Shown: in pieces, positions 8,834 to 15,267 of the stretch
How the letters are laid out: each line of letters opens with the position of its first letter
Numbering within the stretch: position 1 is the stretch's first letter
Source of the DNA: Dehalococcoidia bacterium
GTDB lineage: Bacteria; Chloroflexota; Dehalococcoidia; UBA2979
Direction of reading: 5' to 3'
Assembly: GCA_965262725.1 (NCBI GenBank)
Contig: OZ253555.1
Coordinates: forward strand, 1,504,001-1,568,000
Length of the DNA: 64,000 nucleotides
Program-made: the position numbers and the translations under genes
Notes under the pieces: generated by a model
The model's database searches: none
What the model saw: only the letters and a program-made list of their open reading frames with translations
Told to the model about the DNA's origin: nothing

Positions 8834-9760
8834 GTGAACGTGAGTCCCCCGCCCGCCGGGCTGTCTCGACGAGTCGCGAGGCTCATGGGCTCGGCGGTCG
8901 AGTCCGGTTGTCCGGCCGCGGGTGGGTACACCCCTGCCGAGCGTTGGTCTCTGACCCTTGCGGACGGGCGGCGTGTCTTCGCCAAGACCGGCGCAGACAC
9001 ACCGCAGTCTGCGGTCGCCAGCTGGCTGCGTCGCGAACACCAGGCCTACCGAGACATCTCCGCACCCTTCATGCCGGCGCTGCTTGGATGGGACGACGAC
9101 GGTCGTCACCCCTTGCTCCTCCTGGAGGAGCTCAGTCACGGGAAATGGCCCCCTCCATGGAGTGCAGAGCAGATTGCCGCGGTCCGATCCACCGTGGAGG
9201 ACGTTGCGCGGACGCGACCACCGGTGTGGGCTGAGGACATCGAGGAACGAGAGCGAGGGCACCTCTCCGGGTGGCTCCGAGTTCGGGAGGACCCCGCCCC
9301 CTTCCTCAGCCTGGGGCTCAGCGACGAACGGTGGCTGCGCACGTGTCTCCCAGCCCTCATCGAGTCGGCCGAGTCGGCACAACTCGATGGCGGCTCGCTC
9401 GTTCACTTCGACGTGCGCAGCGACAACCTCTGCTTCGTGAACGACGATGTCCACCGACGCGTGACGCTCGTCGACTGGAACTGGTGCGGACGCGGGAGTC
9501 CGTTGCTCGACCTCATGTCATGGCTCCCGAGCCTGCATTCCGAGGGAGGACCAGCCCCGTGGGACATGGTCGAGGAATCCAGGGGTTTCGCAGCGCTGCT
9601 CAGTGGGTACTTCGCGGCACAAGCCGGGCTGCCACCGACCGGCAGCGGCACACGGGGCCGACAGTTGCAGCTGGCCTGCCTCCGCAGCGCTCTTCCGTGG
9701 GCAATTCGAGAACTTCGGTTACCGGAACCACCTATCGAGCGATCATCGGTCCCTGACTAG
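8834..9760 (+). CDS. Aminoglycoside phosphotransferase-family kinase
   Basis: GGYTPA, VFAK, LVHFDVRSDN, LVDWNW. Confidence 0.8.
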   Translation: MNVSPPPAGLSRRVARLMGSAVESGCPAAGGYTPAERWSLTLADGRRVFAKTGADTPQSAVASWLRREHQAYRDISAPFMPALLGWDDDGRHPLLLLEELSHGKWPPPWSAEQIAAVRSTVEDVARTRPPVWAEDIEERERGHLSGWLRVREDPAPFLSLGLSDERWLRTCLPALIESAESAQLDGGSLVHFDVRSDNLCFVNDDVHRRVTLVDWNWCGRGSPLLDLMSWLPSLHSEGGPAPWDMVEESRGFAALLSGYFAAQAGLPPTGSGTRGRQLQLACLRSALPWAIRELRLPEPPIERSSVPD

Positions 9761-9839
9761 GAATGGTGCGGGTGGGAATGATGCTTACATCTGGCCCCAC
9801 TTTGATCCTCTGATCTGGCCCCACCCCCGGGGACCGGGA

Positions 9840-10622
9840 TCAGGTCGTTGGGGCACCTCCTCTCGGGGAGGTCGAGGCCCGGAGCCGGTAGGACTCGGTG
9901 CCGGTCTCGATGATATGGGCACGGTAGGTGAGGCGGTCAACGACGGCCGCGGCGAGACGAGGGTCGGTGAAGATGCGGCCCCACTCGGAGAACGGGGAGT
10001 TGGAGGCGACGGCGACCGATGCCCGTTCCTCGCGCTCGGTCAGGATCTGGAACAGCATTTCGGCACCGCGCGGGTCGAGGTGGACGTACCCGAACTCATC
10101 CAGGCAGAGCAGGTCGAGGCGGCCGTAGCGGGCGACGAGGCGTGAGAGCGCGCGATCATCCGACGCTTCGGCCAGTTCATTCACCAGGGCGGCCGTGGTC
10201 ATGTACCGCACGCGCAGCCCCAGGTGGCAGGCGGCCATGCCGAGGCCGATGAGCAGGTGTGACTTCCCGGTGCCGCTGTCACCGAGCAGGACGACGGGCT
10301 CGCCCCTTTCGACCCAGTCGCAGCGCTCCAGCGTGGCGAGCGCCGGCGCGTCGACTGTCGGCGCCGCCTCGAGGTCGAAGTCGGCGAGGTACTTGAAACG
10401 CGGGAACCGCGCCTCGACGATACGGCGCTGACGGCGCCGCTCCTCACGGTCATCGCGTTCGGCTCCCAGCACTTCGGCGAGATAGCCCAGATGGGTGATC
10501 CGGTCTCGGACCGCGGCTTCGGCGAGCGGGAGCGCCTGCTTCCTGACGGTGGGGAGACGGAGCTCGCGGCAGATCGCCTCGATTGTCAGCTCCGCGGCCT
10601 GGTCGGTGAGGGGTGCTGTCAT
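9840..10622 (-). CDS. istB: IS21 helper ATPase IstB
   Basis: GDSGTGKSH Walker A, LDEFGY, AAVVDRL, GTESYRL. Confidence 0.92.
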   Translation of the reverse strand: MTAPLTDQAAELTIEAICRELRLPTVRKQALPLAEAAVRDRITHLGYLAEVLGAERDDREERRRQRRIVEARFPRFKYLADFDLEAAPTVDAPALATLERCDWVERGEPVVLLGDSGTGKSHLLIGLGMAACHLGLRVRYMTTAALVNELAEASDDRALSRLVARYGRLDLLCLDEFGYVHLDPRGAEMLFQILTEREERASVAVASNSPFSEWGRIFTDPRLAAAVVDRLTYRAHIIETGTESYRLRASTSPRGGAPTT

Positions 10623-10638
10623 CGGGTGCCTCCTGTGG

Positions 10639-12273
10639 TCAGCGTGCCGTCGACACCGCAGCGGTGACGGCGGTTGTGGTGGTGTGCGACGCGTTCTCGG
10701 CAGACCGCGGAGCGCGGGAGCGCCCGCCCGGCGACGTGCCGGGCCATCGGGAATCACCCGAGAGCAGCGCATCGTAGCCATCGAGGAGCGGGGCAGGTCG
10801 GTCGTAGCGCTCCAGGTGCGGTCTCTCGACGGCGGCGTCTGGTGGCCTGCGGTCGGCGAGACGGCGCGCCTCGATGGCGACCAGTTCGGGGTTCACCGAC
10901 TGGATCCTGTTGACCGTCCCGAGCGCGGCGTGCACCGCCGTGAAGGGAAGATGGCGATGCAGGAGCAGGACCTCGATGTACGCCTGCGTGCCCGCGCGGT
11001 CGCCGAGCTTGCGGCGGGCGCGGTCCCAGAAGCGCTGATGCTCGGCTGTGACGTGTCCCTTCGCACGCGCCTGCTGGAGCGCCACCGAGCCCGGGACCGC
11101 CCCGGGCTTGCGCGCGAGCACCTCCAGATAGTGGTCGAGCAGCAGGACCTCTGCTCCGGTGCGGGCGCTGCGCTCGTGGTGGGCGACTTCACGCCCCTCG
11201 GCCCACACGGTCAGGCTGTTCCCGGACAGCCGCACGTCCAGCTTCCGGCCTGCATAGGCCGCCGGGACCGAGTAGCGGGAGCTACGCACGGCGATGCGCG
11301 CCTTGCGGTCGACCTTCGCGCGCAGCGGGATTGACGGGTCGAAGCGCTCCGCCGGAAGCGGACGCAGCGAGGCCTTCTCGTTCTCTCCCATCTCGCCGAC
11401 GGTGGCGAGGCGGCTCTCGATGTGCCGGGCGTCGTCGGTGCGGTCCGCCTCCCGCACTCGTTCGTTCAGCTCGCCGAGGGTCGCCACCTTCGGGACCGGC
11501 ACGAAGTGCCGCCGGCGGAAGCGGCCGACCTCGCCCTCCACACCGCCCTTCTCGTGCGCGCCCTCGATGCCGGGCTCACAGAAGAAGCTGTCGAAGCCGT
11601 AATGCGAGCGGAGCGCGATGAAGCGCTCGGTCTGCAGGCGCTCGCGTCCCTGCAGCACGGTGGTGACGGCCGCCGTCAGATTGTCGTAGCGGATGCGCCG
11701 CGGCACTCCGCCGAGCCGCTCGAAGGCGACCACGTGCCCCTCGAGCAGAGACTCCTGGCCCTCGCCGACGAAGCAGACGTGCGCCGCCCGCCCCGAATGC
11801 GAGAGCCGCATCACGAACATCGCCAGCCGGGTCTCGACGCCCTCCAGCCACACCGTCACCGTGCCGAAGTCGACCTCCGCCTCCTCGCCGGGAGGATGGA
11901 CCTGCGGGATCGTCACAACCGCGCGCCCGCCCTGGATCTCGCGACGCAGGCGCGCGACGCAGGCGCGGACCGTGGGCTCGGCCACCGTCGCCCCGTGTTC
12001 GTCGACGAGGCGCTCCCAGATGCGCCGGGCCGTGTGCCGCTGCTTGCGCGGCGCGCTGAGGTCGTCCACGAGCCAGCCCCGGATGACCGAGACGTACGGC
12101 CCGAGCTTCGGGGCCACGCGGGTCGCCTGCTTGCGTTCCGGGGGTATCGCCGACCCAAGAGCCTGCCGCACCGTGCGCCGGTGCACGCCATGCCGGCGTC
12201 CCAGCTCATGGATCGACAGCTCCTCCTCCCTCGCCATCCGTCGGATAGACTCGAACAGCTCCACTCTCGACAC
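10639..12273 (-). CDS. istA: IS21 transposase IstA
   Basis: N-terminal HTH, KQRHTARRI, EAEVDFG, YDN, HEKGGVEGEVG. Confidence 0.92.
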   Translation of the reverse strand: MSRVELFESIRRMAREEELSIHELGRRHGVHRRTVRQALGSAIPPERKQATRVAPKLGPYVSVIRGWLVDDLSAPRKQRHTARRIWERLVDEHGATVAEPTVRACVARLRREIQGGRAVVTIPQVHPPGEEAEVDFGTVTVWLEGVETRLAMFVMRLSHSGRAAHVCFVGEGQESLLEGHVVAFERLGGVPRRIRYDNLTAAVTTVLQGRERLQTERFIALRSHYGFDSFFCEPGIEGAHEKGGVEGEVGRFRRRHFVPVPKVATLGELNERVREADRTDDARHIESRLATVGEMGENEKASLRPLPAERFDPSIPLRAKVDRKARIAVRSSRYSVPAAYAGRKLDVRLSGNSLTVWAEGREVAHHERSARTGAEVLLLDHYLEVLARKPGAVPGSVALQQARAKGHVTAEHQRFWDRARRKLGDRAGTQAYIEVLLLHRHLPFTAVHAALGTVNRIQSVNPELVAIEARRLADRRPPDAAVERPHLERYDRPAPLLDGYDALLSGDSRWPGTSPGGRSRAPRSAENASHTTTTAVTAAVSTAR

Positions 12274-12399
12274 ACTCCTCTTCCCTCGCTCCGGGAGTCA
12301 TGCAGTCACCCGAGCGTAGGTCCTGGATGGGTCGGGGGTGGTGTCCCCATGTTCTTTGTCAAGGGCCAGCGCCACTGATCCGGGATGGCCGGCGCAGCG

Positions 12400-13616
12400 T
12401 CAGGCAGCCACCGACCCGTGACGAGGAGCCTCCTCGGCGCGGTACGGTTCGCGCGAGCGCAGCATGGCCAGGATGACGTCGCAGCGACGACGCGCGAGGC
12501 AGATGACGGCTGCGGTGTGTTTCTTTCCCTCGGCCCGCTTGCGGTCGTAGAACGCCCGCGAGACGGGGTCGCGCAGCGAGGCGAAGGCGGAGAGGTACAT
12601 CGCGTTCTTGAGCCGGTGATTCCCGCGGCGGCTCCGCGTCTGCCCCCGGATGCTGCTGCCGGACTGGCGGGTGACCGGGGCAAGGCCGGCGTAGCTGGCC
12701 AGCCTCGATCCGTTCGCGAAGCGGGAGATGTCACCGATCTCGGCGAGCATCCGCGCTCCCGTCCTCGGCCCGATCCCCGGCAGGGAGCCGAGGATGGGGC
12801 CGAAAGGGTGGGCCTCGAAGAGCTCCCCGATCTCCGCGCCGAGCCGCTCCCGCCGCTGCTGCGTGCGATCCAGCTCGGTCGCGACCTCGGCGATCACCCG
12901 ACCCATCGCGACCGAGCCGGGTACGACCACGGTCTGGGCGCCGAGGGCCCCGGTGACGGCCTCGGTGAGCGTCTTCGCGAGGCGCGGCGAGCGCTTCCGG
13001 AGCGTCCGCGCGATGCGGCCGCGACCCGCCGTGGCCAGCGCCTGCGGTGTCGGGTAGCGGGCGAGCAGGTCCCGTGCCCCCGCATTGTGGAGCCTGGGGC
13101 CCAGTACGCGCTCCAGGGCCGGGGAGAGACCGGTGACGGCGTCGCGCAGCCGGTTCGTGAGCCGCGTGGCATCGGCGGCGAGGTCGGTGTCGTAGCCGTT
13201 GAGAACGCGCAGCTGCTCCAGGAGTTCGTCGTCGCCGGCGTCGAGCCAGTGCACCTGGTGGCGCCGGGTGCGGCCGGTGTCGGCCAGCACGAACGCATCG
13301 CGGCGGTCGGTCTTGGACTCACCCGGGTAGAGGTCGGCGGCACGGCGCATGACCAGCCCCGGCAGTATGCCACCGGCACGCCGCGGCGGGCGGCGACGGC
13401 GAGCACGAGCCGGGCCAGCGAGCCGGGCTGGTCGACGACCAGTGCCGGGGAGCCGAAGGACTCCGCGCGAGCGAGGAGCGCCTCGATGTCGGCCTCGTCG
13501 TTCGCGACGGCGACGGCGAACAGCGGCGCGCCTGCCGCGTCCAGCACATCGGCGAAGTGCTCTGTCTTGCCGATGTCGAGGCCGATCCACACGGTGGTTT
13601 CGTCGGGCGTACCCAC
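12400..13616 (-). pseudogene. IS110 recombinase with a single frameshift near 13366
   Basis: IGLDIGK...VVDQPG in one frame; KTDRRDA, LPGIG, YAGLAP, SGSS and RRGNHRLK in the next frame. Confidence 0.85.
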
Positions 13617-13659
13617 TGCAACTCCTTCCGGGGTTTCCCCCTCATTCCAGCAGGAAGGC

Positions 13660-13830
13660 CGCAGGCGCGCTCGCCGTCATCCACCTTACAAATCAGCGAT
13701 TGGCTCGCATGTCCCCATCAGAGGTTCACGCGCCGAACAGTGCCGGTGGCAACACCACCCGAGCCGTCCGTTGCGGCAGGGCCATTTGAGCCATGCCGGC
13801 ACTGCTGGGCTTCCCGGGCTCAGAGGTTAC
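13660..13830 (-). ncRNA. Putative IS110 bridge RNA (ends approximate)
   Basis: Target guides AAATGGCCC (13787-13779) and GGGTGG (13760-13755); donor guides ATGGGGACA (13718-13710) and GTAAGGTG (13689-13682); all match the actual junctions. Confidence 0.75.
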
Positions 13831-13852
13831 TGAGCTCGTTTGAAGAAGGTAA

Positions 13853-14171
13853 GGGGCCATTTCCCGTGACTGAGGTCCTCCAGGAGGAGCAAGGGGTGAC
13901 GACCGTCGTCGTCCCATCCAAGCAGCTCCGGCATGAAGGGTGCGGAGATGTCTCGGTAGGCCTGGTGTTCGCGACGCAGCCAGCCGGCGACCGCAGACTG
14001 TGGTGTGTCTGCGCCGGTCTTGGCGAAGACACGCCGCCCGTCCGCAAGGGTGAGAGACCAACGCTCGGCAGGGGTGTACCCACCCGCGGCCGGACAACCC
14101 GACTCGACCGCCGAGCCCATGAGCCTCGCGACTCGTCGTGACAGCCCGGCGGGCGGGGAAGTCACATTCAC
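13853..14171 (-). pseudogene. Truncated inverted second copy of the 8834-9760 kinase, cut by IS110
   Basis: First 106 aa differ from copy 1 at 5 positions; ends at HGKWP at the IS110 junction. Confidence 0.9.
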
Positions 14172-14502
14172 ACCGAGAATCCTACAGGTGCACCGGCGAC
14201 CGGGAATGGGAGCGGGGTGCGCACTCTTCGCGAAAGGGCGTCACGGGCCACGGAGGTTACGGGCCGGTCCACCGATCGTCCTCCACGGGATGCTTGATTG
14301 CGAGAACTGCGGGAACGCGCCGCATCCCGCCCGCAATCACGCACTGTCCGCTCTTCCGCGAGTGCTCGGTTGGCGCGGCGGGACCACGGCGAGGCGGTTG
14401 ACGCCGCATCCTTGACGCGATGGCGGCCCGTCGGCATGTTCGTTCCCGGGGTCGGCGGGCTCGGCCTTCGAGCCGACGTGAGCGGATGTCGGAGGCGCAG
14501 CG

Positions 14503-15267
14503 ATGACGTCCTACGTCGACCGCCTCGCCCGCCGCAGCCGCGCGGTTGGCAGCTTCGTCTGCGTCGGCCTCGACCCGCCCGGCGACCTGCCTGTCGAGGA
14601 GGTCGCGCGCCGCAACCGCGCGCTGATCGAGGCGACCGCGCCCTACGCCGCCTGCTTCAAGCCCAACCTCGCCTTCTACGAGCAGTTCGGCATCCCCGGC
14701 CTGCGCGCCCTCGAAGCGACTCTCGAAGCTATCCCCGGCGGCATCCCTGTCATTTGCGATGCCAAGCGCGGCGACATGAACAACAGCGCCGCCGCCTACG
14801 CCCGCGCCCTCTTCGAGGTCTGGGGCTTCGACGCCGCCACGGTGAATCCGTACCAGGGGCGCGACGCCGTCGCGCCCTTCCTCGCCTACGAGGACCGGGG
14901 CGTTTACCTCCTCTGCCGCACCTCGAATCCCGGGTCCGCCACCATCCAGAACGCCACCCTCGCAGGCGGCCTGCCGCTGTATGAACGCCTCGCGGCCGAG
15001 ATGCCCTCGTGGGGCGCGAACGTCGGCCTCGTCGTCGGCGCGACGGCGCCGACCGAGCTCGCCCGGGTGCGCGCGCTCGCTCCGGAGACCACGATCCTCG
15101 TGCCGGGCGTCGGCGCGCAGGGAGGCGACCCGGCCGAAGTGGTGGCCGCGGCGGGACGGGCGCCCGGCCTCATGGTGGTGAGCGCCTCCCGCAGCATCGC
15201 GAGCGCGCCGGACCCGGCGGCCGCGGCGCGAGACCTGCGCGACGCCCTCAACGCCCCCGGTCGGTGA
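14503..15267 (+). CDS. pyrF: Orotidine-5'-phosphate decarboxylase
   Basis: CVGLDP, FKPNLAFYE, DAKRGDM, RTSNPG, LVVGAT, PGVGAQGG. Confidence 0.95.
   Translation: MTSYVDRLARRSRAVGSFVCVGLDPPGDLPVEEVARRNRALIEATAPYAACFKPNLAFYEQFGIPGLRALEATLEAIPGGIPVICDAKRGDMNNSAAAYARALFEVWGFDAATVNPYQGRDAVAPFLAYEDRGVYLLCRTSNPGSATIQNATLAGGLPLYERLAAEMPSWGANVGLVVGATAPTELARVRALAPETTILVPGVGAQGGDPAEVVAAAGRAPGLMVVSASRSIASAPDPAAAARDLRDALNAPGR

Follow-up and report, generated by a model that had tools for sequence, protein, structure and literature searches.

An IS110-group element with a bridge RNA in its left end, and the probable role of IS21-family end repeats as its natural target, in a Dehalococcoidia bacterium

We analysed a stretch of 64,000 nucleotides from a Dehalococcoidia bacterium (GenBank assembly GCA_965262725.1, contig OZ253555.1, positions 1,504,001 to 1,568,000; hereafter the window), in which an insertion sequence of the IS110 family, copy A, adjoins an element of the IS21 family. 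Copy A is an IS110-group insertion sequence with a bridge RNA encoded in its left end (LE). Very probably, the natural target of this element is the direct repeat carried at the ends of IS21-family elements, its guides have been retuned among relatives to variants of that repeat, and the present arrangement of copy A arose by an inversion with a second copy, B. The mechanism as such is already known; the notable features are the fine-scale natural retuning of guides within one target family and the presence of a third-tier element in the bridge-RNA DNA. Coordinates of the features discussed are collected in Table 1.

The boundaries of copy A could be read directly from its junctions. On the minus strand, the left junction reads GGGAAATGGCC-CC-TTACC, with LE beginning at 13852, and the right junction reads ATGGGGACA-CC-ACCCCC, with the right end (RE) finishing at 12342. 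Two independent kinds of empty site, namely 14 IS21 copies and a kinase-like paralog at 9143-9156, each carry a single CC, as against two in the occupied state, and these fix the boundaries of the element and show duplication of a 2-bp core. The non-coding ends measure 236 nt upstream of the gene (LE) and 58 nt downstream of it (RE), and no inverted repeat joining the two ends was present among the 25 longest of the 59 inverted repeats found. The long end upstream of the gene, together with the lack of an end-pairing inverted repeat, therefore places copy A in the IS110 group and not in the IS1111 group.

Four DNA segments of LE had been proposed to match the left target, the right target, the left donor and the donor junction, and we found them in the claimed order, once each and matching both junctions: AAATGGCCC at 13787-13779, GGGTGG at 13760-13755, ATGGGGACA at 13718-13710 and GTAAGGTG at 13689-13682. 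Mononucleotide shuffling of the 233-nt LE, repeated 200,000 times, gave each of the two 9-mers in about 0.1% of cases and never gave both 9-mers together or all four segments, so the guide segments are not due to chance. The right target guide and the three bases that follow it (GGGUGGUGU) are complementary to the right junction ACA-CC-ACCC, a pairing with the product junction that is predicted by the handshake model (PMC11208158).

Table 1. Positions of the features in the window (position 1 is its first nucleotide).
Feature	Position	Strand	Remarks
IS110-family element, copy A	12342..13852	minus	1,511 nt between two CC cores; frameshifted; based on junctions, empty sites and alignment with copies B and C
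Core dinucleotide CC, left copy	13853..13854	minus	Single CC in empty sites, one per side when occupied
Core dinucleotide CC, right copy	12340..12341	minus	Single CC in empty sites, one per side when occupied
Left target (LT) AAATGGCC	13855..13862	minus	8/8 match to left target guide; belongs to kinase-like gene, not IS21
Right target (RT) ACCC	12336..12339	minus	Right half of IS21 repeat L2; 4/4 match to reverse complement of right target guide
Bridge RNA region of left end	13664..13838	minus	5' stem-loop 13838-13815; target-binding loop module 13806-13736; donor-binding loop module 13734-13664
Left target guide (LTG) AAAUGGCCCU	13778..13787	minus	5' side of internal loop of target loop; covaries with left flank (AAA, AAG, AAC, ATT)
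Right target guide (RTG) CGGGUGG plus UG	13753..13761	minus	Position like handshake guide
Left donor guide (LDG) AUGGGGACA	13710..13718	minus	Identical to last 9 nt of RE; covaries with RE in relatives
Right donor guide (RDG) GUAAGGUG	13682..13689	minus	Reverse complement of CA-CC-TTAC in circle junction; invariant in 17/17 relatives
Recombinase gene	12400..13616	minus	Disrupted by loss of 1 nt between 13365 and 13364; copies B and C have the intact gene (405 aa)
TTGACA, -35 of proposed circle-junction promoter	12357..12362	minus	TTGAC at same distance from RE end in 19/21 relatives
TACCTT, proposed -10	13846..13851	minus	3/6 match to TATAAT; T, A and final T invariant in alignment of left ends
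IS21-family element	9773..12341	minus	istA 10639-12273, istB 9840-10781; outer 58 bp of left end now about 77 kb away, beside copy B
IS21 right-end direct repeats R1 and R2	9789..9824	plus	R1 9789-9800, R2 9812-9824; ATCTGGCCCCAC(C); unoccupied
5' half of kinase-like (APH-fold) gene, cut by IS110	13855..14171	minus	3' half to the right of copy B
Empty secondary target AAATGGCC-CC-CTCC	9143..9156	plus	In intact paralog gene 8834-9760

The structure of the bridge RNA was examined on an alignment of the left ends of 17 relatives, which share 74-100% DNA identity. This gave a 5' stem-loop, a target module made up of outer stems, an internal loop and an inner hairpin, and a donor module built in the same way. 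Over the 37 pairs, 92.5% of the alignment cells were paired, compared to 33-50% when the partners were slid, and 16 of the 37 pairs had changed on both sides (7.3 in shuffles); none of 500 shuffles reached the observed values. The guide segments lie outside the stems; all four are within the two internal loops, on both sides of each, between covarying stems, in keeping with the predicted layout of a target loop followed by a donor loop. Among the relatives, LDG follows the end of RE in four variants (AUGGGGACA, AUAGGGACA, ACGGGGACA and ACAGGGACA).

The recombinase of copy A is interrupted, as had been suspected. A 1-nt deletion relative to copies B and C splits it into overlapping open reading frames (ORFs) at 12894-13616 and 12400-13590, and copy A is not autonomous because of this frameshift. 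Both PF01548 (DEDD) and PF02371 were found across the two ORFs, the former as a domain-level match divided between the ORFs (profile positions 1-77 and 75-155), and the latter with an E value of 2e-24. The intact 405-aa protein of copy B matched NCBIfam NF033542, 'IS110 family RNA-guided transposase', over its full length with 218 bits (cut-off 140). The C-terminal domain of the recombinase aligns to that of IS621 (8wt6, E 1e-18), with RQSGSS opposite YESGSS, and the SGSS serine motif is kept.

We then turned to the adjoining IS21-family element, whose IstA scored 240 bits on NF033546 (cut-off 160) and whose IstB scored 248 bits on NF038214 (cut-off 200). About 15 near-identical copies of it are present in the genome, which consists of one contig of 3.67 Mb, and 15 copies show the paired repeats at both ends as well as target duplications of about 5-7 bp. 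An intact left end reads TGGGAATGATGC...GAATTGGCC-CC-ACCTGGAG (repeat L1) ... GAATTGGCC-CC-ACCCCCGACC (repeat L2), and the right end consists of two inverted copies of the same repeat (R1 and R2). Right-end repeats had been placed at about 9790-9825 and are indeed present there, as ATCTGGCCCCAC on the plus strand. To the right of copy A the sequence continues precisely with the right half of L2 and then istA, and this flank shows no difference from the L2-right sequence found in 14 other copies of IS21.

The 14-mer target encoded by the guides, AAATGGCC-CC-ACCC, has no exact unoccupied copy in the genome. Of the sites with one mismatch, 17 out of 18 lie in the ends of IS21-family elements, and composition predicts about two sites with at most one mismatch. 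The proposal that the programmed target is the IS21 end repeat stood as regards its match to L1/L2 and R1/R2, but the abundant IS21 copies carry AATTGGCC, one mismatch away from the guide. The sole occupied IS21 copy of the genome (position 1438904, in the left flank of copy B) has AAATGGCC in L2, a perfect match to the guide, as against AATTGGCC in the remaining 14; this single base may mean that the best-matching IS21 copy was selected, or it may be a coincidence.

The closest relatives of copy A were found in metagenome-assembled genomes of Dehalococcoidia. A DNA search of the whole class, which scored two candidates per genome and gives presence and not copy number, was positive in 14 of the 401 genomes searched (this genome included), and in 8 of 25 others of the same family. 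We assembled a census of 22 distinct copies from five genomes, in which the left flank of one copy (L087) was not recovered, and called a flank IS21-type by a regular-expression rule (IS21 terminus, second repeat or pre-istA leader). IS21-type junctions were seen on the left in 15 of 21 readable cases and on the right in 10 of 17, with at least one such flank in 16 of the 22 copies. Seven of these 16 were backed by adjacent IstA or IstB: IstA begins 67 nt past RE in L006 and L009, the C-terminus of IstB, read inwards, lies 21-44 nt past RE in L008, L011, L108 and L107, and the window copy is the seventh. Insertions were found in all of L1, L2, R1 and R2, and the IS110 element points into IS21 in all seven protein-supported cases. 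No IstA or IstB was found near any of 72 more distant IS110 loci, comprising the 80% subfamily and actinobacterial relatives, nor near copy C (L002) or L018, where the IS21-type flank is a mere remnant. Tabulation of the flanks thus showed insertion sites that are not unrelated to the programmed target, and lends support to the suggestion that the element specialises in IS21 ends.

Two further observations concern the insertion sites of relatives. L007 (genome G401) and L024 (G402) occupy apparently the same site in an orthologous protein-coding gene, with right flanks reading ...CGAG..TTCGAGTGGAACGT..., which suggests either an inherited insertion or a non-IS21 site that is used repeatedly. 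Some contigs from public runs (run X14) also place relatives beside IS21-type repeats, and serve as illustration only.

A comparison of guides and flanks among the relatives showed that the first three bases of LTG vary, being AAA in copies A and B, AAG in copy C, AAC in G401, ATT in G402 and G403, and AAT in G251. AAA, AAG, AAC and ATT were each found at least once beside an identical flank triplet. LT matched LTG at 8/8 positions in 9 of 19 copies, at 6-7 of 8 in eight and at four or fewer in two, and RT matched RTG at 4/4 in 9 of 17 copies, 3/4 in three, 2/4 in four and 1/4 in one. These counts are descriptive and not a statistical test, because copies within a genome share descent. RTG encodes ACCC in most copies, ACCT in copy C and ACTT in one lineage of G403; a member of this last lineage, L112, sits in the L1 repeat GATTTGGCC-CC-ACTTGGAG and is matched at 8/8 and 4/4. 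A sister subfamily, 80% identical, comprises copies D, E and F of this genome (positions 1722019, 3064563 and 3314219) and loci L012-L021. Its guides are LTG AGUGCCCCC and RTG UGGGGGG, it sits in C-rich sites (..CC-CC-CCCC..) and not in IS21 ends, and none of these copies and loci lies beside IstA or IstB.

IS21 sequence had been implied on the left of copy A as well; this proved incorrect, as the left flank is the 5' half of a kinase-like gene, and neither this flank, nor the empty site at 9143-9156, nor an inversion of about 77 kb had been part of the original prediction. The genome contains near-identical copies A (window), B (99.9%, intact) and C (98%, intact), together with three copies of the 80% relative and several fragments. 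About 77 kb separate copies A and B, which face in opposite directions. An intact kinase-like paralog lies at 8834-9760; the left flank of copy A shares 95% identity with its residues 1-106, and the two halves of the interrupted gene align to residues 1-106 and 121-267 of this paralog (95% identical). The DNA at 9143-9156 equals the left flank of copy A joined to the right flank of copy B with one CC. Copy B mirrors copy A: it is bordered on the left by the outermost 58 bp of an IS21 left end and on the right by the remaining 3' half of the kinase-like gene. The IS21 target duplication CCCGCAC is found once outside the IS21 tip at copy B and once outside the right end of the IS21 element in the window. 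In the simplest history, copy A would be one product of an inversion of about 77 kb with copy B, which would account for its hybrid flanks. At the kinase-gene insertion the left half (LT and core) is fully matched but RT is matched at only 2/4, which recalls the 'half-match' insertions reported for IS621 (10.64898/2026.08.31.748434).

Some neighbouring arrangements were also noted. The kinase-like copies at 8834-9760 and 13855-14171 form an inverted repeat of about 320 bp around the IS21-IS110 block; the first is intact up to the IS21 right end and the second is cut by IS110. Elsewhere in the genome, the IS21 copies at 245383 and 3651484 have swapped target-site duplications, with TACATT and ACGCGG each split between them, which points to another rearrangement by recombination between insertion sequence copies. 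In the IS21 copy at 3381712 the left half of L1 is fused to the right half of L2 and the spacer between the repeats is lost, and IS110 copy C is flanked in the same L1-left/L2-right manner.

By analogy with IS621, a promoter formed at the circle junction of copy A is plausible as a reasonable inference. The 18-nt spacer proposed between TTGACA and TACCTT in the circle was confirmed by count, with 17 nt from TTGACA to the end of the core. The conservation of TACCTT is partly explained also by its pairing with RDG. Scans of the integrated copies A and B with a promoter consensus called no site, and a hybrid promoter combining TTGATC of the IS21 left end with TACCTT over a 16-nt spacer was dropped as unsupported. 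Contigs from two RNA libraries of one study cover 13540-13851; DNA carry-over is not excluded, and these contigs do not prove transcription. Transcription would start from the circle-junction promoter, and the element may be currently active.

Taken together, these results suggest the following course of events. The target loop (LTG AAAUGGCCCU and RTG CGGGUGG) would read the target AAATGGCC-CC-ACCC, the donor loop (LDG AUGGGGACA and RDG GUAAGGUG) would read the element's own RE-CC-LE circle junction, and the DEDD/Ser recombinase would swap strands at the CC core. The natural target would be the direct repeat borne twice at each IS21 end (L1, L2, R1, R2), which the IS110 element would enter oriented towards the IS21 interior, and the first three guide bases would have been retuned in each lineage to the repeat variant of the local IS21 subfamily. 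In this genome, one IS110 would have entered L2 of an IS21 element and a second the half-matching site in the kinase gene, and recombination between these inverted copies would have produced the inversion of about 77 kb and the present copies A and B.

A number of observations weigh against this account. A single-sequence fold was marginally above its shuffles (z -1.81) and paired part of LTG with RTG, and it was for these two reasons that the left ends of relatives were aligned; on the alignment the LTG-RTG helix was rejected, being 67.6% paired compared to 58.8-82.4% for slid registers, and it appears in the single fold because C-runs face G-runs. No Rfam match was obtained at E values up to 1 for positions 9000-15000 of the window with 4,227 models, so the presence of a bridge-RNA family in Rfam is not shown either way. 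The final two RDG bases form pairs with the donor of the element itself, and in IS621 such pairing with the cognate donor inhibited strand exchange (PMC11208158). The proposed -10 matches the consensus at 3/6 positions and was not called by the scan, and no RE-LE circle joint was seen in the assembled contigs of 24 public runs, although contigs reveal neither rare joints nor the starts, ends and strand of transcripts. With regard to targeting, the regular expressions for IS21 flanks were composed after the data had been seen, copies within one genome are not independent, and 14 other IS21 copies in the genome are unoccupied though one mismatch from the guide.

In an alternative reading there is no specialisation at all: the guide would read a short GC-rich motif (TGGCC-CC-ACC) of which IS21 ends are merely the commonest carriers in these IS21-rich genomes, and the association would be a by-product and not an adaptation. 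This would accommodate the 6 of 22 copies that lack an IS21-type flank (L007, L010, L024, L105, L087 and fragment 1651637), which also count against targeting of IS21, as well as the insertion in the kinase-like gene with only its left half matched and the 24 of 52 two-mismatch sites of the genome that lie outside IS21. It does not sit well with four guide triplets that each stand beside the identical flank triplet in an IS21 repeat, with the change of RTG to ACTT that gives an exact fit to the L1 repeat in L112, or with the excess of one-mismatch sites in IS21 ends over the number expected from composition. We regard this alternative as improbable. It is highly unlikely that a single old insertion hitch-hiked on IS21 transposition, making co-occurrence a matter of descent and not of repeated targeting: a composite IS21::IS110 could in principle move as a unit and copies within one genome are near-identical, but the five genomes show insertions in all four repeats and in several subtypes of IS21, the 14 other near-identical copies of IS21 in this genome are all free of IS110, and an end split by an insertion should not transpose, since IstA needs two complete repeats per end (PMC10122671).

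Targeting of IS21 end repeats by a bridge RNA, as favoured here, can be set beside the characterised system IS621 (PMC11208160, PMC11208158). IS621 shares with the present element a DEDD domain together with a serine-bearing Tnp domain, a left end that precedes the gene and encodes a guide RNA running from a 5' stem-loop through a target loop to a donor loop, an LTG in top-strand sense and an RTG in reverse complement, a 2-bp core read by four guides, and a -35 in RE with a -10 in LE, both being candidates here. In IS621 the two target guides pair with opposite strands, LTG with the bottom one and RTG with the top one, and every guide takes in the core (PMC11208160). The differences lie in the core (CC here, CT in IS621), in guide length (LTG 10 nt, including a U-G wobble at the second core base, and RTG 6-7 nt, compared to 9 and 4), and in the target, which is an IS21-family end repeat instead of a repetitive extragenic palindromic (REP) sequence. 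The host here is a high-GC member of the Dehalococcoidia, and only the C-terminal third of the 405-aa recombinase aligns to IS621 by phmmer.

IS4321 and IS5075, members of the IS1111 group, reportedly home to the end repeats of another transposon, the 38-bp repeats of the Tn3 family, in a fixed orientation. They resemble the present element in being of DEDD type and in homing to transposase-binding end repeats of another transposon in fixed orientation, but they carry subterminal inverted repeats and a guide RNA downstream of the gene, whereas the element studied here belongs to the IS110 group and its targets are the direct repeats of IS21. Homing to the end repeats of another transposon, known from the IS1111 group, thereby gains an example in the IS110 group with IS21 as its target. 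ISEc11 and ISXne4 are likewise close relatives that differ mainly in their guide segments, with flanks that differ to match, as described by Siddiquee et al. (2024; PMC11187229); that case is a switch to an unrelated site, unlike the retuning of 1-3 bases within one target family seen here. A full-text literature search found no paper on IS110 elements in IS21 ends, but the supplementary target tables of Durrant et al. and Siddiquee et al. may hold such cases.

From sequence alone one can read the guides, the two empty sites, the donor junction and several retuned relatives, which makes the element a clean natural case and a useful worked example. It also provides high-GC bridge recombinases whose core is CC and whose guides are longer. 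Such elements also reshape genomes, since two copies underlie the inversion of about 77 kb, the splitting of a gene and the parting of an IS21 element from the tip of its left end. Each IS21 end is built from two direct repeats, both of which IstA requires in complete form for integration (PMC10122671); an IS21 end with an IS110 element in one of its repeats would therefore be expected to lose its function. More tentatively, this IS110 lineage could be a dedicated parasite of IS21, with a guide triplet that coevolves with the IstA-binding repeats. By disabling the ends it hits it might act as a brake on IS21 while gaining safe landing pads, and it might itself be host to an IS1111-like parasite whose homing site is the DNA encoding the 5' stem-loop of the bridge RNA, giving a three-level RNA-guided chain, a possibility to which we give rather less than even weight.

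A second IS110-family element of about 1.56 kb was seen inside the left end of one relative (L009:1229-2792), in the loop of the 5' stem-loop, with junctions CTCAGTAG / ATGGCATGAGGG ... CCCTCATAGA / AGCCTCTGAG. Its layout is IS1111-like: the long non-coding region follows the gene, and TGAGGG/CCCTCA repeats lie subterminally. Six copies from three genomes show this nesting (L009, L010, L024, L110, L018 and L087), and three levels of nesting can be recognised, an IS1111-like element in IS110 in IS21.

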